Made by a program: the position numbers and the translations under genes | In this document: piece by piece, positions 50,897 through 63,931 of the stretch | Layout: each line of letters starts with the position of its first letter | Numbering within the stretch: the stretch's first letter is position 1 | Notes under the pieces: generated by a model | What the model was told of the DNA's origin: nothing | The model's input: the letters and a program-made list of their open reading frames with translations, nothing else | Database searches by the model: none | Assembly (NCBI GenBank): GCA_963808235.1 | Contig: CAWEEQ010000004.1 | Coordinates: forward strand, 480,001 to 544,000 | DNA from: an uncultured delta proteobacterium | Lineage (GTDB): Bacteria; Desulfobacterota; Binatia; Binatales; Binataceae | Direction: 5' to 3' | DNA length: 64,000 nucleotides

Positions 50897-51592
50897 CTAG
50901 CGGGTCTTAAGCTTCCGGTCGATTACCGACTCGAATGCTGAAGGCGGCTGAGCGCCACTCATCCCATGTCCGTTTACAATGAAATAGGGCGTACCGTTAG
51001 CGCCGACACTCTTGCCCTGCGATCGATCCGCGACCACGGCACTCTCGTACTTGCGATCATCGAGGCAGGTATCGAAACTTGCGGGGTCCAGCCCGAGCCC
51101 GGCCGCGGCCGTCTTTAATTCTGTCGTCGAGAGTCCCGACGGATTTTCGAGCAGTGCGTCGTGATAGGCCCAGAACTGACCCTGCTCATTGGCGCATCGC
51201 GCAGCTATCGCCGCTTCCATCGCGCGAGGGTGAAAAGGCAGCGGGAAGTCCATGTACACCAGTCGCACCTGGTCGCCGTATTTCTTCAGCACTTGCTTGA
51301 GCGACTTTTCGGCCTGGCGGCAAAACGGGCACTGGAAGTCGGAGTACTCCACAATCGTAATCGACGCGTTGTCGCCGCCGCGCTGCGGATGGTCTACGCT
51401 CACCTGGTCGTCTTGCGAGCTCGAGTGACTGGGAGACTTCGAATCGGAACTATCACTGGACGAAGGAACTCGAACCCAATCGTCCTGCGCGAGCATGACC
51501 GCGGCGTTATCGGATCCTGCCCCGGCAGAAGCAGCCGTCAGCATCGCGGCGCCGAAGGTCGCAGCCAGAATAAAATTTATCGCGGTCCGCAA
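50897..51592 (-). CDS. DsbA/BdbD-family thiol-disulfide oxidoreductase
   Basis: Signal peptide, Ser-rich linker, EYSDFQCPFC, DFPLPFH, AARCANEQGQFW, GTPYF. Confidence 0.92.
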   Translation of the reverse strand: MRTAINFILAATFGAAMLTAASAGAGSDNAAVMLAQDDWVRVPSSSDSSDSKSPSHSSSQDDQVSVDHPQRGGDNASITIVEYSDFQCPFCRQAEKSLKQVLKKYGDQVRLVYMDFPLPFHPRAMEAAIAARCANEQGQFWAYHDALLENPSGLSTTELKTAAAGLGLDPASFDTCLDDRKYESAVVADRSQGKSVGANGTPYFIVNGHGMSGAQPPSAFESVIDRKLKTR

Positions 51593-51719
51593 CAGTTCCC
51601 CCCGGTCGAAACAAATGCGGCTCGTAGTTTACGCGCGCGGGGATGGGCAGTCGAGAACCTTGCGGGAGCAGGCGTTTTCAGCGGTGCGAGCGGGCGCTGG
51701 AAATTTCTGAGATTTAGTT

Positions 51720-51750
51720 CCTCGCCCGACGCTTCGTTGTCAGGGAGAGG
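51720..51750. repeat. REP-like hairpin, reverse-oriented relative of the 14498/48261 element
   Basis: Reverse complement CCTCTCCCTGAC-aacgaagc-GTCGGGCGAGG has the same CCTCTCYC...GGGCGAGG arms. Confidence 0.55.
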
Positions 51751-51757
51751 CAAATGA

Positions 51758-52576
51758 CTAGGGTTCGGAGGCTGCTATGTCCTGCACGAATTGGTTCATC
51801 GTGCGGCGCGAGACCAGCATGCACATGAACCCGCCGTGCGGGTAGCTCAGGCAGATGCTGTAGCCCTTGTACACGTAGTAGTTGTGGTCGCCCATCGCGC
51901 GGATTGCGCCGGGCGGGGGCTCGAAGCCGTGCGACTGCATGTAGGTGCACAGGATGGTGCCGGTATCGCTGCGATAAAAAGTGAACGAGACCGGGCTTCC
52001 GTCGCGCAGATGCTCAACGCGTCCGCCGACAAGCTTGTAGCCGCTCGGCTGCAGATTCCACAGAAATCCCGGCAAATGATTGTCCATGTAGGCGCCCGAG
52101 ATATCGGGCGGCGAGTTCCCTTTCACGTTGGGTTCGAAGTGAACCGCGAATTGTGAGTAGTGGTTGATCGCGATATCGAAAGGCGTGATCGCATGAGCGG
52201 GCGTGCGCGAGATGCCGCCGTGCAGAACCACAACCACAATCGCGGCAGCCGCGGCGAGCATAATCGGAACCCACACGCGCGCGCGGCGAAGTACTGAGGG
52301 CCTGCGGCGATCGGCGTCGGCAGAGCGCTCGCGATTGCGCTCGGTTGTGTCGGCGGCGTCGAGCGCGGCAAGGATCGATCCGCGGACCATCGCGGGCGTG
52401 CGCATCATCTGGGCGCGTTCGCGCATCAGGGATTTGACGGCCCGCTCTTCGGCGAAGCGCGTGCGGCAGCTGGCGCATCCGGCGAGATGTTCTTCGGCGG
52501 CGCGAAGCTCATCGGCGCTCAGCTCGCCGTCGACGTGAGCCGAAAGGTATTTCTCGATGTAAGTGCCGCAATCCAC
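51758..52576 (-). CDS. Membrane-anchored zinc-binding (zf-HC2/ZAS) anti-sigma factor
   Basis: C..LSAHVDGEL..EEHLAGCASC, one TM helix, extracytoplasmic domain; downstream of the ECF sigma. Confidence 0.9.
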   Translation of the reverse strand: MDCGTYIEKYLSAHVDGELSADELRAAEEHLAGCASCRTRFAEERAVKSLMRERAQMMRTPAMVRGSILAALDAADTTERNRERSADADRRRPSVLRRARVWVPIMLAAAAAIVVVVLHGGISRTPAHAITPFDIAINHYSQFAVHFEPNVKGNSPPDISGAYMDNHLPGFLWNLQPSGYKLVGGRVEHLRDGSPVSFTFYRSDTGTILCTYMQSHGFEPPPGAIRAMGDHNYYVYKGYSICLSYPHGGFMCMLVSRRTMNQFVQDIAASEP

Positions 52577-52577
52577 G

Positions 52578-52766
52578 TTATGGTGCCACGTCTATAGGGT
52601 CGTTTCGCTCGACGGTCGTCCGTTGTACTCGGTCCCGGGAGAGTTGCATCGCGTAAACGACGCTTGATGTGTCGAATAGGCTGTATGCTTGTTGGGAGTC
52701 AAGACTATTTTTATCAGCAGAGGACTCATCACAGTAAACCAAGTTGCTCGTCGTATAAGAAGCCAC
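52578..52766 (-). CDS. Possible 62-aa ORF between sigma and anti-sigma
   Basis: GTG start preceded by AGGA, stop 1 nt before the anti-sigma start; no recognisable family. Confidence 0.25.
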   Translation of the reverse strand: MASYTTSNLVYCDESSADKNSLDSQQAYSLFDTSSVVYAMQLSRDRVQRTTVERNDPIDVAP

Positions 52767-52776
52767 GGTCTTTTCC

Positions 52777-53352
52777 TTACCTTACTAAACCACGTTCCCT
52801 GGCAAATGCTGCCAGGCTTTCGCGCAAGATGGCGCGTCCGCGCGAGACCCGGGATTTTACCGTACCGATCGGTATGTTCAGAACCCCCGAAACCTCCTGA
52901 TAGCTTAGCTCCTCCACGTCGACGAGCAGGATCGCTTCGCGGAATTCCTCAGGTAGACTGGCCAGCGCCGTCTCGACTTCGCCCTCCATCCCGCGGCCGG
53001 AGAGCATCGACTCGGGATTCGAAGCGGCCGGATCGGCGTGCATGCTCTGTGTCTCCAGCTTGCGCTCGAAATCCTCTGTCGAGGCGGCGGGCTGCTCGCG
53101 CGACGATTTGCGATAGCCGTTGCGAAAGTTGTTGAAGAGAATCGTGAGCATCCACGCGCGGCAATTGGTGCCGGTCTCGAACTGATGAAAGAAGCGATAG
53201 GCGCGCAGGATCGTTTCCTGAAGCAAATCGCCGGCGTCGTCGGAATTGCGGGCGAGGCGCAACGCCATCGAGTAGAGCGCGTCGAGGTGAGGCAGGGCTT
53301 CCTCCTCGAATCGCTTGCGCCGGTCTTCGCCGGTGCCGCTTTTGTCCGTCAT
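52777..53352 (-). CDS. ECF sigma factor (SigH/SigR-like)
   Basis: HLDALYSMALRL..DAGDLLQET.LRAYRFF.QFETGTNCRAW..I; LPEEFREAILLVDVEELSYQEV..IPIGTVKSRVSRGR. Confidence 0.93.
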   Translation of the reverse strand: MTDKSGTGEDRRKRFEEEALPHLDALYSMALRLARNSDDAGDLLQETILRAYRFFHQFETGTNCRAWMLTILFNNFRNGYRKSSREQPAASTEDFERKLETQSMHADPAASNPESMLSGRGMEGEVETALASLPEEFREAILLVDVEELSYQEVSGVLNIPIGTVKSRVSRGRAILRESLAAFARERGLVR

Positions 53353-53472
53353 ATGCGAATTTGGAAAACATATCACCCTACATGATCAAAATCTTGGGTC
53401 GAGGTGAAATGTTCCCGAAAAGCCAGAATTATCGCTGGAGACCTCAGAGTCTTGCGAAATCCACGCGGCGGA

Positions 53473-53547
53473 GGAATACGTAATTCAGTACAGGTGGTTG
53501 CGCAATATAATGCTTGTGTATGGAACGATAGCTTCCGAACAGGTGTT
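53473..53547 (+). promoter_or_regulatory. Two tandem SigH/SigR-like ECF promoter motifs upstream of the precursor gene
   Basis: GGAAT-N19-GTT (53473-53499) and GGAAC-N18-GTT (53522-53547); both contain CAGGTG at the -10 end. Confidence 0.5.
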
Positions 53548-53634
53548 TAGACATTGGCATCACGCTGTATTTATTTCGGCGCGATTGGTAAGTCGGTAAC
53601 TATCAGGCATGAAACCCGAAAGGAGATAAGGATC

Positions 53635-53904
53635 ATGAGAAAAGCGAAAATCACCGGTGCGATGCTCGCGACTGCGGTGGCGCTGGTCTTTGCGGGCAGT
53701 GTGGTGCAGGCCGCGGACTCCGGCTCGGCGGCGTCGCAAGTCAAGTGCGTCGGCGGCAACTCGTGCAAGGGGCAGAGCGCGTGCAAGAGCGCGTCGAGCG
53801 ATTGCAAGGGTCAGAATGCATGCAAGGGCAAGGGCTACGTGATGACTCCAAGTGCGAAAGAGTGCCTGGCGGCGGGAGGAAAGCCGGAGACGAAGAAAGA
53901 TTAG
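53635..53904 (+). CDS. Secreted Cys-rich MNIO precursor peptide, bufferin BufA2-like
   Basis: AGGAG RBS; Sec signal ending VQA; mature part CVGGNSCKGQSAC..CKGQNACKGKG..C with 6 Cys; immediately upstream of DUF692. Confidence 0.85.
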   Translation: MRKAKITGAMLATAVALVFAGSVVQAADSGSAASQVKCVGGNSCKGQSACKSASSDCKGQNACKGKGYVMTPSAKECLAAGGKPETKKD

Positions 53905-53949
53905 GGCCACTGGCGCGTTGGTAGAAAAACGGAGCGTCGAATCATTGCG

Positions 53950-54859
53950 ATGAAGCGATCAGATTTTCCACGTTTGGGTTTCGGCGTGGGGCTACGGCGG
54001 CCTCACTATAAACTGATCGTCGAGACGCATCCGAAAGTAGATTGGTTCGAGGTCATCTCGGAAAACTTCATGGTCGAAGGCGGACGCGCGCTCGAAGTGC
54101 TCGAAGCGGTGCGCGAGCAGTATCCAATTGCGATGCACGGGGTGTCGATGTCGATTGGCTCGAGCGATCCGCTCAGTCGCAAGTACCTGCGTCAACTGCG
54201 CGATCTCGCGCGGCGCTTCGAGCCGGCGTGGATCTCGGACCATCTGTGCTGGACCGGCGTTGGCGGGCGCAATCTGCATGACCTCTTACCTTTGCCATAC
54301 ACCGAAGAAGCGATCCGTCATGTGGCGGCGCGGATTCGGCGGGTCCAGGAAACGCTCGAGCGGCCGATGTTGATCGAAAACGTTTCCAGCTACATGGCAT
54401 TCGCCGACTCGACGATGACCGAGTGGGAATTCATTTCGTGCGATAGCCGAAGAGGCTGACTGCGGAATCCTGCTCGACATCAACAACATCTTTGTGAGCG
54501 CGTTCAATCATCGCTTCGACGCCAACGATTATATCGACGCGGTGCCGGCGGATCGCGTGGTGCAGTACCATCTCGCTGGGCATAGCGACCACGGTACTTA
54601 CCTGCTCGATACGCACGATCATCCGATCCGCGAAGAAGTGTGGGCGTTGTATGAGCGCGCGGCGCGGCGATTCGGCGAAGTCGCGACGCTCGTCGAGTGG
54701 GACGACAACATCCCGGAGTTCGCCGTGCTTGCCGACGCGTCGGAGCGGGCACGCGGCATCTTCAATACAGTTACCAACGAGCATGACGCGCGGAGTCGCG
54801 ATGGCCGTTCGCCTGAAGCGATTGGAAAGCATCCTCTATCGGCTGATCACCGCCCCTAG
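53950..54859 (+). CDS. DUF692 multinuclear non-heme iron oxidase (MNIO, BufB-like), split by a +1 frameshift near 54434-54436
   Basis: GVGLRRPHY, WFEVISENF, HGVSMSIG, SDHLCW, HDLLPLPY, IENVSSY, then in the shifted frame ADCGILLDINN, YHLAGH, DTH, VEWD. Confidence 0.92.
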
Positions 54860-55673
54860 CGGTGTCGCCGAAGGATTGGCCGCCGAGCGCGAGCTGCCGG
54901 CAGGCGGCCTCGATGCGCTCGTGCGCGGTGACGATCGTCTGTCGGCCGAGGATCGTGTCGATATCTACGCGAACATGTACTTCTACCGCCTGCTCGATGT
55001 GCTCAAGGAAGATTTTCCCGCAACGCTGAAAGTCCTCGGCGACGACAATTTTCATAACCTCGCGACCGGCTACCTGCTCGAATATCCGCCGACCGAGCCG
55101 TCGGTGTACTACTGCGGGCGTCATCTGGCGGATTTCCTCCGCGCTCATCCACTCGGAAGCGACACGCCGTACATTGCGGACCTGGCAGCACTCGAGCGCG
55201 CGGTGGTCGAAGTATTTCATGGCCCCGACGCGGCCGCGCTCGAGCCCGAGCATCTTCGCGTTATCGCTCCTGAAAAATGGCAGGCGTTGAAACTACGGAC
55301 GCATCCCGCGGTGCAAATTCTCAATCTCAAATGGCGAGTCGTGGAAATTTTGCGGGCGGTGGAAGAGCATCGTGAATGGAAGCCCGCCGATGCCGGCGCG
55401 ATCCAGGCGATCGTGTGGCGGCGCAACTCGCGGGTATTCTACCGTGAACTCGAAAAGGTTGAGGAACGAGCGCTCGAAACTGCTCGCGCCGGCGTCACGT
55501 TCGCGAAAGTGTGCGAGCTCGTCGCTGCCGACGGTGACCCGGCGCGCGAACCGGTGGAGGAGCTGAATCGATTGCTCGCGCGATGGCTCGGCGACGGCAT
55601 TCTAACCAGCTCCAGAACTTCGCGCCGCATCGGAGCGGGTGATCTTTCGACGGCTCGCGGATATAAGTCATAG
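54801..55673 (+). CDS. DUF2063 (BufC/HvfC-like) MNIO partner protein
   Basis: RVDIYANMYFYRLLDVLKEDFPA..LG.DNF..L..YL..YPP, ADLAALERA, HPAV, VWRR. Confidence 0.88.
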   Translation: MAVRLKRLESILYRLITAPSGVAEGLAAERELPAGGLDALVRGDDRLSAEDRVDIYANMYFYRLLDVLKEDFPATLKVLGDDNFHNLATGYLLEYPPTEPSVYYCGRHLADFLRAHPLGSDTPYIADLAALERAVVEVFHGPDAAALEPEHLRVIAPEKWQALKLRTHPAVQILNLKWRVVEILRAVEEHREWKPADAGAIQAIVWRRNSRVFYRELEKVEERALETARAGVTFAKVCELVAADGDPAREPVEELNRLLARWLGDGILTSSRTSRRIGAGDLSTARGYKS

Positions 55674-55706
55674 ACGCCCGGCATCAGGAGCCGAGCGGAA
55701 ATCTCC

Positions 55707-56804
55707 GTGACCGGCAACAGCATTCGAGTCGAGCGCCCGTCGAGCAGCGAGCAACTTGATGAGTTCGCACGCCTTCCGTTTCAAGTCTATGGAAATCGTG
55801 ACGCGTGGTGGCCGCCTGACGTCCAAAACGAGATCGATCTGCTCTCGCGCCGCAGCTTGCTTGCCGCGTACCTGGAAATCGAGCCGTTCTGTGCGTGGCG
55901 CGCGGGCAAGCTGGTCGCGCGTGTGACGGCAATCGTCAATCGCCGGTACATCGAACATTGGAACGAGCCGCTCGGCCAGCTGATTCATTTCGAGGCGCTC
56001 GAAGACGAAGACGAGGCAGTCGCGGCGATGCTCGCAGATAGCCGGCGATGGCTCCGCGAGCGCGGGATGCGCTTCGCGCGGAGCGGCTTCGCGGCGTTTC
56101 TGGATTATCCGTATGTGATCGACAACTATCGATCGTTCCCGTCGTTTCTGCTGCGCGGAAATCCTCCGTCGTACCATCGCTACTTCAAGGATGCGGGCTT
56201 CACCACGGAAAAAGGGCAGGTTGATTACACCGCACCGCTAAGCGCCGAGATGCTCGCGCGCTATCGCGGTATGGCCGAATCGGCAAGCGCGTCGGGAGTT
56301 ACGATTCGAAGCTGGCGCGAGTTCGGATTTCTGGCCGCAATCGACGCGTGGACCGACGTGACCAACGCGGCTTTCAATCGGCACTGGGGATGGAACCCGG
56401 TGACGCGGGCGGAAGTGCGGCCGATGCTGACAACGCTGTGGGAAACTCCGGTCGCCGACTTGTCGATGCTCGCGTCGGTTGGCAGCGAGGTCGTAGGCGC
56501 AGTCTTCTCGGTGCCGGACTTGAGTGCTGCGCTTGCGCGGGTGCGCAGGGGAGTCAGCCTTGAGCCGGAGCGCGGCGGCGGTACTCGCGGCGCGTTGATC
56601 AATATCGGAGTCATCGAGAGGGCGCGCGGGCGTGGGATCGCGCTTGCGATGGCGGCGCGATCGTTCCTCGCGATGGCGTCGCGCAAGATGCGATTCGCGG
56701 GCTACACGCTGGTGCTCGATGACAATTGGGCATCGCGCCGAACCGCGCAGAGCCTGGGCGCGCAGGTGACGAACAATTTCGTCACCTATCGTTGCGAGCT
56801 TTAG
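55707..56804 (+). CDS. Tandem GNAT-fold acyltransferase (resembles the YghO/bacterial ceramide synthase-like family)
   Basis: F..LPFQVY..WWPP, GKLVARVTA, HFEA, WLRERGM, NPPSYHRYF..AGF, AFNRHWGWNP, IGVIERARGRGIA, LVLDDN. Confidence 0.7.
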   Translation: MTGNSIRVERPSSSEQLDEFARLPFQVYGNRDAWWPPDVQNEIDLLSRRSLLAAYLEIEPFCAWRAGKLVARVTAIVNRRYIEHWNEPLGQLIHFEALEDEDEAVAAMLADSRRWLRERGMRFARSGFAAFLDYPYVIDNYRSFPSFLLRGNPPSYHRYFKDAGFTTEKGQVDYTAPLSAEMLARYRGMAESASASGVTIRSWREFGFLAAIDAWTDVTNAAFNRHWGWNPVTRAEVRPMLTTLWETPVADLSMLASVGSEVVGAVFSVPDLSAALARVRRGVSLEPERGGGTRGALINIGVIERARGRGIALAMAARSFLAMASRKMRFAGYTLVLDDNWASRRTAQSLGAQVTNNFVTYRCEL

Positions 56805-56838
56805 TTTCAGTCTCAAAGAGGATAGAAAGCCGTGTTTG

Positions 56839-57321
56839 ATGCTTAGCCTCCGCCTGGTCGTGCTCTTCACCCATGTTGTTGCGGTAATCGTCGCACTCGG
56901 CAGCTCGCTGTTCAGCACTTTTGCGCTAGCGCCGATTCTTGCGGATGAACTCGAACCGCCCAACCGGATTCGAGTCGCACGCCGCGTGATTCGACGGCTC
57001 GGCGCCATTGTCCTGACATCACTTGCCGTGCTGATCGTGACCGGAATCCTGAACGTGCTCTTTGTCGGCGGCGTCTCGATTCTTCTTTTGATCAAGCTGA
57101 TACTGGTAATCGTCGTGATCGGACTCGCGCTGTATCAATACGGAAACCTCGGTGCGCGGATTTGGCGGCTGTCCGCGGGTGGTCCGAGTCCGGAGATCGC
57201 GGAGTTGCAAGCGCGTTTTCGACGAGTGGGACTGACCGTCGGAGCGCTGGTACTGCTGATCGTTTATCTGTCGCTCGGGCTGACGCGCGGATCCGAAGCG
57301 ATCGTCGCCGCGATTCGCTGA
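56839..57321 (+). CDS. CopD-like four-helix membrane protein
   Basis: FTHVVAV..LGS..F...LAP, RRL..LIVTGILN, LLIKLILV pattern typical of CopD/DUF4149-like proteins. Confidence 0.6.
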   Translation: MLSLRLVVLFTHVVAVIVALGSSLFSTFALAPILADELEPPNRIRVARRVIRRLGAIVLTSLAVLIVTGILNVLFVGGVSILLLIKLILVIVVIGLALYQYGNLGARIWRLSAGGPSPEIAELQARFRRVGLTVGALVLLIVYLSLGLTRGSEAIVAAIR

Positions 57322-57324
57322 ACG

Positions 57325-57882
57325 ATGCTGCGCCGAAGAAAATCGCCGCGCCGAATTCCGCGATGGATACGGTTGCTCACCGACCTGGCGATTTTTCTCG
57401 CGGTCATCACGACGCTGAGCTACGGTAGCGGAGCGCATATTGTGGTTCGATATCTGAATCCGCCGTTCGGCGCATGGTGGAACGCCAACGAGTTTGCGAT
57501 GATCGAGTGCTCCGCGGCCGCTTTCGGGATGCTGGCGGGAATAAAGCTGAGTGCGCGGCTGGTCGATGGTCAATCGCTAACGCAAAACTCGATGATCGCC
57601 GCGGTAGTCGCCGGCGCGCTCGCGTTGCCGGTGGTTGCGAGCCTTGGCGCCCAGGTTGCGCGTTATCGATTCACGCGCGGTGCGTCCGCGAACGCATGGC
57701 TTATCGATCACGCCGGCTACGACACGGGAATGTTCCTTGACAAGCTTCTCGGCGCTGGCGTTTACTCGACGAAGATTGCACTGATCGCGCTTCCAGTCGG
57801 GATGATTCTCTTCGGACTCGGGATCGTTATTTTCCCAAACGCCGCGCCCGAAGCCGACCCTGGGCAAGCAATTTCGAAATGA
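57325..57882 (+). CDS. Hypothetical membrane protein
   Basis: About 4 hydrophobic segments; 3-nt gap to the upstream gene and 4-nt overlap with the downstream gene. Confidence 0.6.
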   Translation: MLRRRKSPRRIPRWIRLLTDLAIFLAVITTLSYGSGAHIVVRYLNPPFGAWWNANEFAMIECSAAAFGMLAGIKLSARLVDGQSLTQNSMIAAVVAGALALPVVASLGAQVARYRFTRGASANAWLIDHAGYDTGMFLDKLLGAGVYSTKIALIALPVGMILFGLGIVIFPNAAPEADPGQAISK

Positions 57883-58550
57883 GCATCGACGATCGCAAAC
57901 CGCTGAGACCGCCCGCGATCAGCCGTCGATCGTTTATCAAGGGCGCCGGAGCGGTCGCGGCCGCAGCCGGTCTGGCGCGCGTTCCGGTTGCGTCGGCAGA
58001 TCAAAAATCTCTGCCCCCAGGTGTCACCGAAAGTCTGGGCCCTGCGGCCGAGGCAATTGAACTGAAAATCAATGGCAACTTGACCAGGCTCACGATCGAG
58101 CCGCGCGTTACCTTGCTCAGTGCGCTCCGCGAGCATCTTGGATTGACCGGAACTAAGCTGGTCTGCGATCGAGGCGCCTGCGGCGCATGCACGGTGCATC
58201 TCGACGGCAGACCGATCACTTCATGCATGATGCTGGCGGTGGACGCGCGCGGGCATGATGTCACGACAATCGAGGGGCTCGGGACGCCGGCGAAAATGCA
58301 TCCGGTGCAAGCGGCATTCGTCGAGGCCGACGCGTTGCAATGCGGATTCTGCACGCCGGGCATGGTGATGTCGGTGGCAGCAGCGCTCGAGCGCAATCCG
58401 GCGGCTACGCTCGACGAAATCAAACACGCGACGGCTGGAAATATTTGCCGATGCGGAACTTATACGCACGTCTTTGCAGCGGCGATGAATGTCGCCAAGT
58501 CGTCGACTGTCAAGACAGCGCGCATACCGCGTTCGCGTGGAGATTCCTGA
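57879..58550 (+). CDS. Tat-exported 2x[2Fe-2S] subunit of a xanthine oxidase-family molybdoenzyme (PaoA/YagT-like)
   Basis: SRRSFIK Tat motif; CDRGACGACTV, SC, QCGFCTPG, NICRCGTY. Confidence 0.93.
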   Translation: MSIDDRKPLRPPAISRRSFIKGAGAVAAAAGLARVPVASADQKSLPPGVTESLGPAAEAIELKINGNLTRLTIEPRVTLLSALREHLGLTGTKLVCDRGACGACTVHLDGRPITSCMMLAVDARGHDVTTIEGLGTPAKMHPVQAAFVEADALQCGFCTPGMVMSVAAALERNPAATLDEIKHATAGNICRCGTYTHVFAAAMNVAKSSTVKTARIPRSRGDS

Positions 58551-60751
58551 TGTCGCGACGCGTCACGCTCAACCTTGGAAGAGAAGGTGACACACGCTCG
58601 GTCACGGTGGACATTCCCGACGACGAACCGACGCCGTGGGATTGGGGCGCGCGGCTCTCGATCGTCGGGCGTGAGACACCGCGCGTCGATGGGCCGCTGA
58701 AGGCGTGCGGCAGTGCGCATTACACTTACGATATCGAACTGCCGGGGATGCTTTACGGCGCGATCCTGCGTAGTCCGTGGCCGCACGCGAGAGTGCGCGA
58801 GGTCGACTTGTCGGGGGCGAAGCGGATGGCGGGAGTGCGTGCGGCGATTGCCAGCGACGATCGCGAAATTCGTTTCGCGGGACAGGAAGTCGCGGCGGTC
58901 GCGGCGCTCAGCAGCGATATCGCGTCCGACGCGCTGAAACTTATCAAGGTCGATTACGAAACTTTGCCGTTCGTGGTCGATGTCGATTCCGCGATGACCG
59001 ATTCGTCACCGCGCGTATTCGGCAGCGGTTCCAATCTTGGCCGCGTGACTACTTCGAACAGCGGCAATGTCGCGCGCGGACTGGAACAAGCGGCCACCAC
59101 TATCGAGACGACCTACACGACGCAGGTACAGACTCACGTCTCGCTCGAGACGCATGGCGCGGTCGCGAGCTTCAGCGGCGACGAACTCACGGTCTGGTGC
59201 TCGACGCAGGGAATTTTCTCAGTGCGCGACGACCTGGCAGTGTACTTCGATCTGCCGCCGGAGAAGGTGCGCGCGGTTTGCGAATTCCTGGGCGGCGGCT
59301 TCGGATCGAAATTCGGTGCGACCCCTGAAATCATCGTCGCCGCTCGCCTTGCAAAGGCAGCGGGCGTGCCGGTGAAGGTCATGCTTCCGCGCGCCGATGA
59401 GCATCGATCAACCGGCAATCGTCCAAGCTCGGTGCAGGCGGTCAAGCTCGGCGTCGATGGCGGCGGGAAGTTGACGGCGATCGATCTGGTCCAGCATGGA
59501 TCGGGCGGGATCGGCGCCGGCTCCGGCAGTTCGGGCCCGTTCAAATCAATCTATCGATGCGACAATATCCATACCGAAGAGCGCAACGTGTATATCAACG
59601 CGGGCCCCGCTTCTCCGATGCGCGCGCCAGGATGGCCGCAGGGATGCTACGCGCTGGAACTCGCGATGGACGAGATGGCGCGCAAAATCGGGATCGACCG
59701 GCTCGAGTTCCGGCGCCGCAACAGCGACAATCCGGTCCGCACGGCCGAGTATGATATCGGCGCGCGCAGGTTCGGATGGTCGGAAAAGAGTGCGCCGAAA
59801 AAATCTACCGGCCCTCTGAAGCGCGGGGTCGGAGTCGCGTCGGCGGCGTGGCACGCGGTCGGAGTGTCGGGCCCCGAGGCGCAAGTGATTGCGAATCGCG
59901 ACGGCAGCGTCGAGGTTCGGGTCGGCACCCAGGATATCGGCACGGGCACGCGCACGGTTTTAGCGATAGTCGCGGCGGAGGAACTTGGTCTGCCGATCGA
60001 TCGGGTCAAGTCTGAAATCGGCGATACGCGATTCCTTTTTTCGGTGCCTTCGGGCGGCAGTCTGAGCGCACCCTCGAACACGCCGGCGGTGCGGCAGGCC
60101 GCGGCACATCTCAAGGACAAGCTGTTTCGAATCGCGGCGCCGATGCTCGGCGCAGAGCCCAACGATCTCGAGGCGTCGAATGCGACGATTCGAGTCCGTA
60201 CCAATCCGTCGCGCGCGATCGCGTTTGCCGACGTCTGCAGGCGGATTTCCGGCGATTCGATCTCGGCGCAGGGCGAGCGGGTTCCGAACTACGGCGGATA
60301 TCGGACCGACCAGGCGGGATGCCAGTTCGCGGAAGTCGAAGTCGACACGGAAACCGGAATCGTTCGGGTTGTGCGCGTGGTCGCGGTGCATGACGCGGGG
60401 CGGATTCTCGATCCGTTGACGGCGCGGAGCCAGGTCAACGGCGGCGTCTTGATGGGAATCGGGTTCGCGCTCTTCGAAGATCGGCGGATGGATCCGCAGC
60501 TCGGAATAATGGTGAATCCGACCATGGACGATTACAAAATGCTCGGTTCGATGGACGCGCCGCAGATCGATGTGACTTTCGTCGACGTTGCCAACGGGCT
60601 CAACAACACCGGTGTGATGGGGCTCGGCGAGGTGGCGCATCTGGCGAGCACCGCGGCGGTCGCATGCGCGGTGTCTGACGCGATCGGATTGCCGGTGCGC
60701 TCGCTTCCGATGACGCCGGATCGGGTGCTGGCCGTTTTGGGGCACGCTTGA
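58550..60751 (+). CDS. Molybdopterin-binding large subunit (PaoC/YagR-like)
   Basis: ATG overlaps the small-subunit TGA; RVDGPLKA.G.A.Y, LGGGFGSK, MRAPG, QDIGTG, GGS, QVNGG, GLGE (catalytic Glu), LPMTPDRVL. Confidence 0.93.
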   Translation: MSRRVTLNLGREGDTRSVTVDIPDDEPTPWDWGARLSIVGRETPRVDGPLKACGSAHYTYDIELPGMLYGAILRSPWPHARVREVDLSGAKRMAGVRAAIASDDREIRFAGQEVAAVAALSSDIASDALKLIKVDYETLPFVVDVDSAMTDSSPRVFGSGSNLGRVTTSNSGNVARGLEQAATTIETTYTTQVQTHVSLETHGAVASFSGDELTVWCSTQGIFSVRDDLAVYFDLPPEKVRAVCEFLGGGFGSKFGATPEIIVAARLAKAAGVPVKVMLPRADEHRSTGNRPSSVQAVKLGVDGGGKLTAIDLVQHGSGGIGAGSGSSGPFKSIYRCDNIHTEERNVYINAGPASPMRAPGWPQGCYALELAMDEMARKIGIDRLEFRRRNSDNPVRTAEYDIGARRFGWSEKSAPKKSTGPLKRGVGVASAAWHAVGVSGPEAQVIANRDGSVEVRVGTQDIGTGTRTVLAIVAAEELGLPIDRVKSEIGDTRFLFSVPSGGSLSAPSNTPAVRQAAAHLKDKLFRIAAPMLGAEPNDLEASNATIRVRTNPSRAIAFADVCRRISGDSISAQGERVPNYGGYRTDQAGCQFAEVEVDTETGIVRVVRVVAVHDAGRILDPLTARSQVNGGVLMGIGFALFEDRRMDPQLGIMVNPTMDDYKMLGSMDAPQIDVTFVDVANGLNNTGVMGLGEVAHLASTAAVACAVSDAIGLPVRSLPMTPDRVLAVLGHA

Positions 60752-60752
60752 G

Positions 60753-61745
60753 ATGAATCGATTTGAGATAGTCACGCCGGCCGACGTAGCAAGCGCCTCG
60801 CGCTTGATGGCGGAGAACGGCCACGCGGCGCTGGCGGGCGGCGTGGATGTCGTCGATCTTGCGAAGCAAAATATAGCGACGCCGACGACGTTGGTGAATC
60901 TGAAAGGCCTGAAGGGGCTCGGCGGAATCGAGGTGCGGCCGTCTGGCGAATTGCGCCTCGGTGCGACGGCGAAGCTGAGCGAAGTCGCGGAGCATCCGGC
61001 GATCCGCGCGAAGTTCACCGCGATTGCGGACGCGGCGGGTGAAGCGGCGACGCCGCAGATTCGCAACCTCGGCACCGTCGGCGGAAATATTCTGCAACGT
61101 CCGCGATGCTGGTACTTTCGGAATCCTGACGTGAATTGCCTGAAGAAGGGCGGTGACAAGTGCTACGCGATTGGCGGGCTCAACCGCTATCACTCGATCC
61201 TGGGCGGAGGGCCGTCGTATATCGTGCATCCGTCGAACCTGGCGCCCGCGCTGATCGCGTTTGGCGCGAGTGCGACTATCGTCGGTCCCGACGGTGAGCG
61301 CGCCGTCGAGCTCGAGAAATTTTTCGCGCTGCCGACGGTGGATCCGCGGCGCGAAAATCTTCTCAAGCCCGGCGAAATTATCACCGAAGTAATTGTGCCC
61401 GCGCCGTCCGCGAACGCCCGCAGTGTCTATCTTGAAGCGCGCGAGAAGCAAAGTTTTGACTGGCCGCTGGTGAGCGCGGCGGTTGTGATCGACGGCACGC
61501 CTGGCGCGAAGAGTATCCGCGATGCGCGCGTGGTGATGGGCGCGGTTGCGCCGGTCCCGTGGCGATCGCTCGACGCCGAGAATGTGCTCAAAGCCGGGTC
61601 GCTCGACGAGTCGCGCGCACGCACGGCCGCCGATGCGGCGCTGAAAAATGCGCAGCCCATGTCGGACAACGCTTACAAGGTCGTGATCGCAAAAGTGATC
61701 GTGCGCCGTGCGATCATGCGCGCCGCCCGACTGGAGGCCGCATAA
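60753..61745 (+). CDS. FAD-binding subunit (PaoB/YagS-like)
   Basis: LAGGVDVV, ATPQIRNLGTVGGNILQRPRCWYFR, HPSNLAPAL, AVAPVPWR, DNAYKV. Confidence 0.93.
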   Translation: MNRFEIVTPADVASASRLMAENGHAALAGGVDVVDLAKQNIATPTTLVNLKGLKGLGGIEVRPSGELRLGATAKLSEVAEHPAIRAKFTAIADAAGEAATPQIRNLGTVGGNILQRPRCWYFRNPDVNCLKKGGDKCYAIGGLNRYHSILGGGPSYIVHPSNLAPALIAFGASATIVGPDGERAVELEKFFALPTVDPRRENLLKPGEIITEVIVPAPSANARSVYLEAREKQSFDWPLVSAAVVIDGTPGAKSIRDARVVMGAVAPVPWRSLDAENVLKAGSLDESRARTAADAALKNAQPMSDNAYKVVIAKVIVRRAIMRAARLEAA

Positions 61746-61747
61746 GC

Positions 61748-61960
61748 ATGGCCTCGCGAACCGACAACTTTTGCGCGCTGCTTCGCACCAAGACTGCTTA
61801 CTATCGCAATCCCGAGGGCGAGCGGATCTTCGATCCGGAAAGTTCCACCGCCTGCTACACCTGTCTCAAGACGCAGCGCCCGGTCGGTCCCGATGGTTTA
61901 CCCGTCGACGCGCAATCGTGCGGCGCCGAGCGTGGATGCTTTGAGGAGGAGCGAACATGA
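61748..61960 (+). CDS. Small Cys-rich protein (70 aa) translationally coupled to the molybdoenzyme genes
   Basis: ATG 2 nt after the FAD-subunit stop; stop overlaps the cupin ATG; CALLRTK..CYTCLKTQRPVGPDG..C..RGCF. Confidence 0.7.
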   Translation: MASRTDNFCALLRTKTAYYRNPEGERIFDPESSTACYTCLKTQRPVGPDGLPVDAQSCGAERGCFEEERT

Positions 61961-62619
61961 GTGCCAACCTCGAGAAAGAATACGGTCCGGTTGCGACGCG
62001 GATGCTTTTCGACAATGACGCCGTGCGAGTGTGGGAGATGGATCTCGCGCCGGGCGGAGTCTGCGGACTGCATCATCATACGATGGACTACGTGCTGTTC
62101 ATCCTGTCGGGCGCGAACGTTGGCGCGCAGTCTCCCGGCGGGCGCAAGATGATGCCGTTTCCGGTCAAGGCGCGCGCGACATATTTTCTTCCGGCGGGCG
62201 GAATTGAAGCGGCGCACAACATGGGTGATACGCGATTCTTCGAGGCGCTGTTCGAGCTCAAGCGGGCGGCGAAATCAGGACGCGAAAAGCTGGGCTTCGT
62301 CGGATGCGAAGCGGTCGCGGGGAAGGAGCCGGAGCCGGGCTCGATCACAATCCTCGACAACGCGCGGGTCAGGGTGTCGGAAACCACGCTCGCGCCCGGT
62401 GGGCATAGCGAGGTGCGGCGATGGTTGCATGACACCGCCGTTTACGTCGCGGAGGGCGGACCGGTGAAGCTCGTGGAGCGCGGTGTCGGTAACCTGGAGA
62501 ACACCCGCGAGGAAGTTTTTCCCGACGGCCGAGTGCTATGGTTCGAGAAAGGGTCACATCGTGGGATCATCAACACCGGGGGAGGACGCTTCCGCCAGGT
62601 AAACGTCGAGTTAAAGTGA
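61957..62619 (+). CDS. Bicupin (two cupin domains)
   Basis: FDNDAVRVWEMDLAPG..LHHHTMDYV..H and a second LDNARVRVSETTLAPG..H...N..ELK repeat. Confidence 0.82.
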   Translation: MSANLEKEYGPVATRMLFDNDAVRVWEMDLAPGGVCGLHHHTMDYVLFILSGANVGAQSPGGRKMMPFPVKARATYFLPAGGIEAAHNMGDTRFFEALFELKRAAKSGREKLGFVGCEAVAGKEPEPGSITILDNARVRVSETTLAPGGHSEVRRWLHDTAVYVAEGGPVKLVERGVGNLENTREEVFPDGRVLWFEKGSHRGIINTGGGRFRQVNVELK

Positions 62620-62629
62620 TACACTAAGA

Positions 62630-63931
62630 ATGGAAAAACCGCTCCGTCCGGCTAAAGCATTTGTACGGCTTCTTTCCGCACTCTCGATCGCCATGATCTT
62701 TGCCGCGACGCCGATCGCGCACGCCCAGGTCAAGCCCGGCGACGTTATCACCGCCAAGAACGCCGAGCAGGTGCGATCGCTGGTCAGCCCAGGCACCTAC
62801 GCCGCGGTCGCCAAGGGCATGCAGATGAACATCGTCGCCTCGGGGCGCATCGATTGGCCGCCGCCATACCAGAACGCGACCGAGAAATATTCGAGCCAGG
62901 TGCGTCTCGCGCCCAACCATCGTGACGTTCTCGGCTACGTCGCGGGACAGCCGTTTCCGTTGCTCGATCCAAACGACCCCAACGTCGCGACCAAGATCAT
63001 GTGGAATCAATACTTCAAGCCGATCGCGACTGACGACTTCGATCTGCGCTATTTCGAATGCCAGGTTGCGACGCAAAATCCGGGCGCCGCGCAAAATCTT
63101 TTGAAGATGACCGAGACCGGACACCTGGCCGGATACTTCGATATCGGACGCACCGAAGTGGATCCGATGCCGGCCGATCCGGATTTCAAAGTAAGCGGAG
63201 TGTGGTGGCGCGCAGCGGCGTATCCAACGCTGGCGCCGGCGGACGATCGCGGCAGCGGCGGAATCCGCTATCGCTATTGGGATCCTGATCACGCCGACGA
63301 CGCGTGGGCATTTCTGGCCGGTACCCGGCGCGTGCGACGCGTGAACGAAGTTATTTTGAGCGCGTCGCCGGGACTATCGACATGGGATCCGGATCACGCG
63401 GGCGGCTTTGCCGCGAAGCCGCAGGAATATCAGTTCAAGTTCCTGGGTGAGCGCAATATGCTCGGATGCGTGCACGCGCGGAATTCGCCCGCGCATCCGT
63501 GCACCAGCGACGGGGGCGCAACTTCATGCAACGACGACTGGGAGATGCGCCATCTCTACGTGGTGGAAGTCACGCCGCGTCCGGAGCGAATCGCGGGCGT
63601 CCTGCAGTCGAAGACGGTCGTCTATATCGACGGCGAGGGATGGTTCAATCCTTACGTCGACAGTTACGATCGCAAGGGCGAATTGTGGACGACGCAGATC
63701 TACCTTGGTACCTATCGCGACCGGCCGGTGCCCGACGCGAAGATCGCGATCTATCCGTTCAAGCGTGAATTCGGCACCGCCGCCTCGAGCCTCGACGTGC
63801 AGAGCGGAGTCTCAACCACCTGCTATCTGCCCGGACCGGACACCGAAGAGCGCGAGTGCTGGTACATCAACATGGGCGCGGTGGGCCGCGATTTCTTCAC
63901 CACTGAGGCGTTGGTAAAGGCCGGGCACTAA
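62630..63931 (+). CDS. DUF1329 family exported protein
   Basis: Signal peptide ending AHA; VKPGDVIT..N, YVAGQPFP, KIMWN, DDAWAF..RRVRR, WEMR..YVVE, YDRKGELW. Confidence 0.85.
   Translation: MEKPLRPAKAFVRLLSALSIAMIFAATPIAHAQVKPGDVITAKNAEQVRSLVSPGTYAAVAKGMQMNIVASGRIDWPPPYQNATEKYSSQVRLAPNHRDVLGYVAGQPFPLLDPNDPNVATKIMWNQYFKPIATDDFDLRYFECQVATQNPGAAQNLLKMTETGHLAGYFDIGRTEVDPMPADPDFKVSGVWWRAAAYPTLAPADDRGSGGIRYRYWDPDHADDAWAFLAGTRRVRRVNEVILSASPGLSTWDPDHAGGFAAKPQEYQFKFLGERNMLGCVHARNSPAHPCTSDGGATSCNDDWEMRHLYVVEVTPRPERIAGVLQSKTVVYIDGEGWFNPYVDSYDRKGELWTTQIYLGTYRDRPVPDAKIAIYPFKREFGTAASSLDVQSGVSTTCYLPGPDTEERECWYINMGAVGRDFFTTEALVKAGH

Follow-up and report, generated by a model that had tools for sequence, protein, structure and literature searches.

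A Buf2 bufferin cassette among probably separable gene modules in a chromosome region of uncultured soil Binataceae

Does a tight run of genes that starts with a peptide precursor and continues on one strand for some ten kilobases encode a single pathway, or does it combine neighbors that were inherited together? The question is raised by the window analyzed here, a stretch of 64,000 nucleotides (nt) of contig CAWEEQ010000004.1 (assembly GCA_963808235.1) from an uncultured soil Candidatus Binatus of the family Binataceae, whose genome (G000) comprises 4.59 Mb in four contigs and is 93% complete. Between positions 53635 and 63931, every open reading frame (ORF) named in an earlier sequence-only reading of the window was found, namely those for a BufA2 bufferin precursor, an MNIO (DUF692) maturase, a DUF2063/RRE partner, a tandem GNAT, a CopD-like and a second membrane protein, PaoA-, PaoC- and PaoB-like subunits of a molybdoenzyme, a Cys-rich protein, a cupin and a DUF1329 protein. 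All of these lie on the plus strand, with successive gaps from bufA to the DUF1329 gene of 45, overlap, 33, 34, 3, -4, -1, 1, 2, -4 and 10 nt, and the genes for an extracytoplasmic function (ECF) sigma factor, a ZAS anti-sigma factor and DsbA diverge from them on the minus strand; in these respects ORF coordinates and gaps agree with the earlier reading. That reading further noted that the GNAT and the CopD-like protein occupy the position of a missing DoxX, and suggested that they may serve the peptide pathway.

The evidence assembled below indicates that the stretch probably consists of separable modules within an old Binataceae chromosome region that follows purL-purF. The first module would be a standard Buf2 bufferin cassette; the second, the GNAT, would be a housekeeping gene with its own promoter; the third would comprise the four-helix (CopD-like) membrane protein, the second membrane protein, the PaoA/C/B-like subunits and the Cys-rich protein; and the fourth, the cupin and the DUF1329 protein. 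The GNAT, membrane-protein and molybdoenzyme genes look like inherited neighbors that were gained, lost and moved separately, and an extended pathway is mostly unsupported. The long gene order is ancient within Binataceae, which leaves some probability to loose co-regulation. Family assignments were made by profile scans (Pfam, NCBIfam/TIGR) of 16 window ORFs, three of which (GNAT, second membrane protein and Cys-rich ORF) gave no profile match; among homologues of the GNAT and of the CopD-like protein, those with a name come from Candidatus Binatus and Binataceae.

Linkage of the modules across Binataceae

Gene order was surveyed twice. In a first survey, 60 of the 65 MNIO matches outside G000, some of them from outside the family, were examined, the other five being second pieces or fragments at or near those or stubs at contig ends; in a second, one set of 151 Binataceae genomes was searched for the MNIO, GNAT, CopD-like and purF genes, with seven genomes omitted from the MNIO linkage counts because 25 MNIO matches lacked listed coordinates. 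Contig breaks inflate every unlinked class in these counts. A local neighbor search, which did not reach distant contexts, additionally retrieved at least 13 related loci at 67-83% identity.

The GNAT is more widespread than the maturase: an orthologue is present in 139 of the 151 genomes, including 94 of the 95 good ones, and an MNIO match in 130, and 16 genomes carry the GNAT without any MNIO match. The CopD-like gene, detected in 67 of the 151 genomes, occurs in 11 that have no MNIO match. As a control for general conservation of gene order, a purF-GNAT link was counted in 91 of 134 genomes, spanning 20 genera, about as often as an MNIO-GNAT link; purF and the MNIO gene are linked in 70 of 119. 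Among the 113 genomes that possess purF, MNIO and GNAT genes, the whole trio is linked in 65, only purF and GNAT in 12 (the MNIO gene lying elsewhere), only MNIO and GNAT in 15, only purF and MNIO in 4, and none in 17. The GNAT therefore shows neither the co-occurrence nor the linkage above background with precursor and maturase genes by which a RiPP-tailoring GNAT would betray its dependence on them.

The third module behaves likewise. In three genomes that are 96-98% complete (G007, G034 and G070) the order is purF-GNAT-DUF1329, and in two of them (G034 and G070) the entire CopD-like/membrane/Pao/Cys block lies at another place; the genes of the block disappear or change position together, also in bufferin-free genomes. 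Across 32 genus loci it is present in 20, absent from 10 and cut off in 2. Inserts longer than 600 nt, several of which are opposite-strand genes, separate the RRE gene from the GNAT in three loci and the GNAT from the CopD-like gene in six; in one lineage (L035, L042, L044, L049, L050, L070 and L092) an opposite-strand gene that appears from its sequence to be ferritin-like follows the GNAT. Neither the GNAT nor the CopD-like or second membrane gene was found at any of 11 paralogous buf2 loci of the genus or, beyond the family, at any of 19 MNIO loci, four of which have less than 6 kb downstream. On a 58-row GNAT tree, MNIO adjacency requires six changes. Several loci without the CopD-Pao block (L124, L125, L126 and L037) retain, before the DUF1329 gene, 3' remnants of the cupin and the 3' end of the membrane-protein gene with its TTGACA motif, and these remnants mark past deletions.

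Three modules also carry conserved promoter-like motifs of their own, which were chosen by eye from the same alignments that were used for counting. A sigma70-like motif of the GNAT, TGAT-N17-19-TATAA (55640..55667, plus strand), is present in 26 of 35 genus loci, compared with a background of 0.7%, and is retained where the GNAT directly follows purF; the RRE-GNAT gap of 33 nt is short because the RRE frame of this strain extends over the motif. Before paoA, TTGACA-N18-TTTACT (57737..57766, plus strand) is found in 28 of 36 loci (background 1.1%); its conservation is partly due to its position inside coding sequence in this genus, whereas in L140, L141 and L176 it falls outside any gene. Within the 3' end of the cupin gene lies an extended -10-like motif (GTGCTATGGT; 62533..62542, plus strand), whose TGCTA recurs in 23 of the 30 loci of the genus, compared with a background of 1.8%, and which is the probable DUF1329 promoter.

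Thus, the expectation of the sequence-only reading that the downstream genes be syntenic with the MNIO genes in relatives held, in its simple form, insofar as the order is shared, other Binataceae genera included. As parts of a peptide pathway the GNAT and CopD-like protein fared poorly, given that their genes persist without MNIO, are purF-linked as often and move independently, and that the GNAT, PaoA and DUF1329 genes have separate promoter-like motifs. The locus is a cautionary case, in which spacing and family-wide synteny resembled a pathway until the purF control and the bufferin-free genomes were checked.

The GNAT and the rival readings

The tandem GNAT (55707..56804, plus strand) is a near-core Binataceae gene whose product, with no transmembrane (TM) or hydrophobic export segment, is predicted to be cytoplasmic. 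Its assignment, in agreement with the earlier reading, comes from its homologues, 85 of 102 of which match PF00583, and from its fold: the model (pLDDT 96.1) matches 7q3a (Z 25.3, root-mean-square deviation 3.3, 305 aligned residues), and a PDB sequence search returned no match below E 0.3. Both sequence and fold place it with the YghO tandem GNATs (20% identity to E. coli YghO over the full length, E 9e-15), among which, and relative to the bacterial ceramide synthase (bCerS)-like proteins, it forms a distant, Binataceae-restricted clade; outside the family, matches drop to about 40% identity or below. A bCerS (CCNA_01212) is said to be a GNAT annotated as 'dATP pyrophosphohydrolase'. In E. 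coli BL21, YghO sits with genes for serine palmitoyltransferase (spt), acyl carrier protein, an epimerase and a fatty acyl-AMP ligase, and the loci of two plasmid homologues are likewise of the lipid type, with Spt-like, epimerase and acyl-AMP-ligase genes. In G000, at 93% completeness, no match to the alpha-oxoamine synthase/serine palmitoyltransferase model TIGR01825 was found, so ordinary ceramide synthesis is unlikely in this genome; strong matches occur in 13 of 41 family genomes. A role of the GNAT as a working ceramide synthase was accordingly rejected for G000, in which no Spt-like gene was found. The GNAT would rather be a cytoplasmic acyl-CoA-dependent N-acyltransferase with a housekeeping role, and its most likely substrate would be a small amine or lipid precursor rather than a peptide. 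G000 has a second YghO-like GNAT (L033, C4:2331290-2332342; 40% identity), which is convergent to a gene that looks like a nitrite reductase and close to one that looks like a sulfatase, both names reflecting sequence appearance.

Several observations weigh against a division into separable modules. The GNAT follows the MNIO gene in all 32 orthologous genus loci (the window and one later locus included), and the two are linked in 81 of 118 genomes from as many as 14 genera; in the 15 genomes noted above, MNIO and GNAT are linked when purF and MNIO are not, some of these cases being explained by contig breaks. The order is near complete down to the Cys gene in five genera, including g27, g31, g32 and g100, and in genus g31 the GNAT directly follows the MNIO gene in 8 of 9 mapped loci, the RRE gene having moved from bufA-MNIO to another part of the genome (L129, L134, L136, L168-L172 and L184-L188). 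The possibility that the GNAT replaces the MNIO partner in g31 was considered and rejected, as a DUF2063/RRE gene was located elsewhere in all five genomes tested. In a trio of MNIO-less genomes, which form a single clade with G028, the ratio of nonsynonymous to synonymous substitution rates (dN/dS) of the GNAT is 0.26-0.40, still below 1, compared with 0.05-0.16 in MNIO-bearing pairs; the DUF1329 control in the same trio is also raised, to nearly the same level (0.23-0.31). Furthermore, relatives are not independent samples, the internal motifs are sequence matches and not evidence of transcription, and a generic scan, in which sigma70 and terminator counts were at or below chance and otherwise uninformative, gave no terminator-like site from the DUF2063 to the DUF1329 gene, so that transcripts begun at the ECF promoter might run on through these genes.

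Such read-through is central to the view of the region as a loose stress island, in which the modules would be biochemically separate, metal or thiol stress would switch on the GNAT, the membrane proteins and the molybdoenzyme together from the ECF promoter, and the order would be kept by selection for this co-induction. Conservation of the order across genera whose proteins are about 65-75% identical fits this view, as do the common strand, the short gaps, the missing terminator-like site and, where the GNAT and CopD-like genes abut, the lack of any clear motif belonging to the latter alone. Equal linkage of the GNAT to purF, opposite-strand inserts that break the run, relocation of modules in bufferin-free genomes and conserved internal promoter-like motifs all argue in the other direction, and we regard this explanation as unlikely. 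The pathway envisaged by the earlier reading, in which the MNIO-modified peptide either gains an acyl group from the GNAT ahead of its export or passes copper on to the CopD-like protein, appears far less probable still. It can draw on the invariant MNIO-GNAT adjacency in the 32 genus loci, on Lys residues in the aligned BufA2 core and on GNATs in other RiPP clusters, including one fused to an MNIO, for which no activity with the full-length peptide was observed (bioRxiv 10.1101/2025.10.30.685615). It is contradicted by the 16 genomes that keep the GNAT without an MNIO match and by the membership of the GNAT in the YghO family, distant members of which reside in lipid loci. Moreover, because the GNAT lacks an export signal whereas the N-terminus of mature bufferin would be made in the periplasm, only side chains would be within its reach, and only before export. 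With four helices and a single His, the CopD-like protein departs from the eight helices and two His that copper-importing CopD needs (PMC11923076), and the locus gave no CopC match.

In the most elaborate form of a connected system, Binataceae would have recruited a housekeeping YghO-family GNAT to attach acyl groups to Lys side chains of a Buf2 bufferin ahead of its export, yielding an acylated copper metallophore. A SigH/SigR-like sigma factor would co-induce the peptide with an exported molybdo-flavoenzyme that lacks the fourth Fe-S Cys and is joined by a Cys-rich accessory subunit and, in the membrane, by a truncated-CopD partner; we consider this highly improbable. If true, the acylated bufferin would be the first tailored bufferin found in the literature searched. 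Neither a GNAT-tailored bufferin nor this locus was encountered in literature on bufferins, MNIOs and copper, on MNIO with GNAT, on Binatota/Binataceae or on bCerS/YghO; the main text of PMC12452194 mentions no GNAT, acetyltransferase, CopD, xanthine or Binat, and its supplementary tables of biosynthetic gene clusters might list such neighborhoods. In the modular reading that we favor, the GNAT and the molybdoenzyme would have independent housekeeping roles.

The Buf2 cassette, the adjoining sigma factor and the MNIO frameshift

The cassette itself is of a known kind, a Buf2 bufferin, its modest twist being the adjoining ZAS-regulated sigma factor and dsbA gene. BufA2 (53635..53904, plus strand; NF050166, 79.9 bits, cut-off 60) has a Sec signal with a hydrophobic stretch at residues 6-24 and, by alignment, a six-Cys core, and the precursors are similar whether or not the locus is linked to the GNAT. 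The MNIO gene (53950..54859, plus strand), encoding a BufB-type maturase, is split by an extra base at about 54439 and matches PF05114 in two pieces; on NF050167, whose cut-off of 310 is exceeded by orthologues, these reach 234.7 and 140.7 bits. The BufC-like DUF2063/RRE partner follows at 54801..55673 (plus strand; PF09836, 60.1 bits, cut-off 27.2; NF050145 below cut-off). A six-Cys, signal-bearing precursor and a DUF2063/RRE protein after the MNIO are thus both in place for a Buf2 system, and the earlier call of a bufferin-type MNIO locus is borne out by these profile matches. With 125 of the 151 family genomes above the BufB cut-off, the known range of Buf2 bufferins now includes an abundant, uncultured family of soil bacteria.

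The closest described counterpart is the Caulobacter vibrioides buf2 cluster (CCNA_02999-03001, encoding BufA2, BufB2 and BufC2), which shares the six-Cys Sec-exported precursor, the MNIO, the DUF2063 partner, the gene order, the absence of doxX and control by an ECF sigma factor (PMC11626156). The same paper reports that the Caulobacter buf2 cluster has no bufD/doxX gene and that doxX is dispensable for modification and function of Buf1. The profile scans of the 16 window ORFs gave no DoxX match, and among the DoxX matches listed for the genus none lies near a purF-linked locus. Because the precursor is a BufA2, Caulobacter buf2 lacks doxX and Buf1 does not need it, no DoxX stand-in is required here, and the notion that the GNAT and CopD-like genes fill a vacated DoxX position falls away. 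Candidatus Binatus has a second, paralogous buf2 locus (L058 and L060-L069) with about 60% MNIO identity, a divergent doxX upstream in all 11 cases and, ahead of bufA, an ECF-like motif of another kind, TGAAAC...ATCAAA. Split cassettes occur as well: MNIO and RRE genes remain at the locus without bufA in G017 and G027 (L051 and L052), and in G158 and G061 (L140 and L141) bufA is still beside the sigma gene with the MNIO gene elsewhere.

By analogy with Caulobacter Buf2, whose mass shift of -18 Da is ascribed in the same source to four oxidized central Cys and one disulfide (PMC11626156), thiooxazole formation, export, disulfide formation and copper binding may proceed alike in Binataceae. The MNIO and its DUF2063 partner would oxidize the four central Cys of BufA2 to 5-thiooxazoles (-4 Da each) in the cytoplasm; Sec export would be followed by formation of a CysI-CysVI disulfide, for which the adjoining DsbA is a candidate catalyst; and the exported product would bind excess copper. 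Two features distinguish the surroundings from published clusters. The sigma pair of Caulobacter is SigF/NrsF, whereas here a SigH/SigR-like sigma factor is encoded alongside its ZAS anti-sigma, and dsbA, unlike in Caulobacter buf2, adjoins the cassette in some Binataceae strains. According to PMC12452194, sigma genes accompany Buf1 and not Buf2 clusters, as opposed to their presence beside this Buf2 cassette, and extra conserved genes are rare in bufferin clusters.

The ECF sigma factor (52777..53376, minus strand) scores 162 bits on its nearest model, the SigH/SigR-type TIGR02947 (cut-off 251.55), and the anti-sigma (51758..52576, minus strand), with an HxxxCxxC motif and one TM helix (residues 101-119), matches PF13490 and falls below the cut-off of the RsrA model TIGR03988. 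Upstream of the sigma gene, at 53388..53416 (minus strand), lies a putative autoregulatory promoter motif, GGGAAC-N18-ATTT; in the form GGGAAC-N18-ATT(T/C) it is found in 45 of 46 distinct upstream regions, compared with none of 20000 random windows. It is similar to the SigH/SigR consensus and agrees with the best sigma model. A related motif, GGAAC-N18-GTTT (53522..53548, plus strand), precedes bufA in the window and is complete in 10 of 28 genus loci, its downstream half GTTTASAC being present in 23 of 28 (backgrounds 1.4% and 1.2%). Like the internal motifs, these were chosen by eye from the alignments used for counting and are sequence matches. A third, GGGAAC-N18-ATTT at 51572..51600 (minus strand), precedes dsbA and is the third-best match in G000 to a matrix built from the sigma gene's own upstream sites. 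The DsbA-like thioredoxin (50897..51592, minus strand; PF13462, PF01323), which has an N-terminal export signal and a patchy distribution among relatives, probably starts at the ATG at 51544; overlap of the motif with the TTG start suggests both the later start and sigma control. This motif makes DsbA a possible sigma-controlled disulfide catalyst for the peptide. No ECF motif was found on the plus strand from 53550 to 63931; only the sigma, bufA and dsbA genes carry one. Expression of the sigma and anti-sigma genes, of bufA and of dsbA is probably under the control of this sigma pair, and a concrete ECF promoter motif with a small candidate regulon (sigma, bufA, dsbA) is now available.

The frame break in the MNIO gene, relative to in-frame relatives, is probably an assembly error. 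Of the full MNIO starts examined, 51 of 53 are in frame, and the metal-ligand motifs are intact in both halves. Short-read contigs from 4 of 13 listed runs were compared across the site, and those from three studies are one letter shorter than the assembly: the X1 contig, which may derive from the source sample, has 473 letters over 474 positions and one other letter that differs, X2 has 678 over 679, and X5 omits a single letter at 54440, the exact place of the gap having been located for X5 and not for X1 or X2. Alternatively, the gene could be a genuine recent pseudogene, such that this strain makes no modified bufferin. The break stands in the assembly itself and not at a long homopolymer, and of 46 places in G000 matched by ORFs of relatives, just 3 proved, on rough testing, to be split by a frame change, so assembly errors are not dense in this genome. 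Against the shorter contigs and the retained motifs, we find the pseudogene explanation unlikely.

Membrane proteins, molybdoenzyme and distal genes

The four-helix membrane protein (56839..57321, plus strand) has one conserved His and matches DUF4149 (25.7 bits, cut-off 24.6) and, weakly, CopD (PF05425, 20.9 bits, cut-off 32.1). Copper-importing CopD proteins have eight helices and two His, and truncated four-helix, one-His forms make up about 35% of the members described in PMC11923076; like these truncated members, the window protein shares with CopD and E. coli YebZ the weak PF05425 match, the four-helix bundle and the single conserved His. It differs from YebZ in lacking the eight-helix, two-His signature and a CopC, of which no match was found among the 16 window ORFs, and BLAST relates the two only at E 0.02. 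A copper-importing function was rejected on the strength of the four TM helices, the single His, the PF05425 score below cut-off and the missing CopC match. The second membrane protein (57325..57882, plus strand), which accompanies the CopD-like and Pao genes, belongs to no Pfam family and matched only unnamed clusters. Where the earlier reading had several CopD-like membrane proteins, then, one is CopD-like, below the CopD cut-off, and the other is not.

The molybdoenzyme consists of a PaoA-like 2x[2Fe-2S] subunit with a twin-arginine translocation (TAT) signal (57879..58550; PF10518, PF01799, TIGR01409), a PaoC-like molybdopterin subunit (58550..60751), whose best solved relative is E. coli PaoC (5g5h, E 4.8e-94), and a PaoB-like FAD subunit (60753..61745), all on the plus strand; profile scans here confirm the PaoABC-like, TAT-signal-bearing enzyme seen earlier. 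In common with E. coli PaoABC, which offers the best solved match for the molybdenum subunit, it has three xanthine oxidase-family subunits, a TAT signal on the Fe-S subunit and the conserved Glu of the GxGE motif. It differs in the order A-C-B, in scores well under the equivalog cut-offs (NF008514, 185.7 vs. 322; NF041671, 419.3 vs. 1180), in the absence of a paoD/XdhC gene from the stretch, in its flanking membrane and Cys-rich proteins, and in the extra [4Fe-4S] site of the PaoB-like subunit, which has three of the four Cys, the fourth being missing in the window and in 28 of 28 orthologues. The trio may be a molybdo-flavo aldehyde oxidoreductase that leaves the cytoplasm by the TAT route, the two membrane proteins being its probable partners.

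Directly after the PaoB-like gene, a conserved 70-residue protein (61748..61960, plus strand) with 56 homologues and four Cys that are invariant in the alignment matches no family; the ESM Atlas yielded only unnamed clusters, all under 0.9, and a fold search is meaningless because its model is poor (pLDDT 56.7). Together with the three-Cys PaoB-like subunit it points to a possible variant molybdo-flavoenzyme, in which it might serve as an accessory subunit. The cupin protein (61957..62619, plus strand; PF07883 below cut-off) often survives in relatives only as a 3' remnant, and the run closes with an exported DUF1329 protein (62630..63931, plus strand; PF07044, 149 bits).

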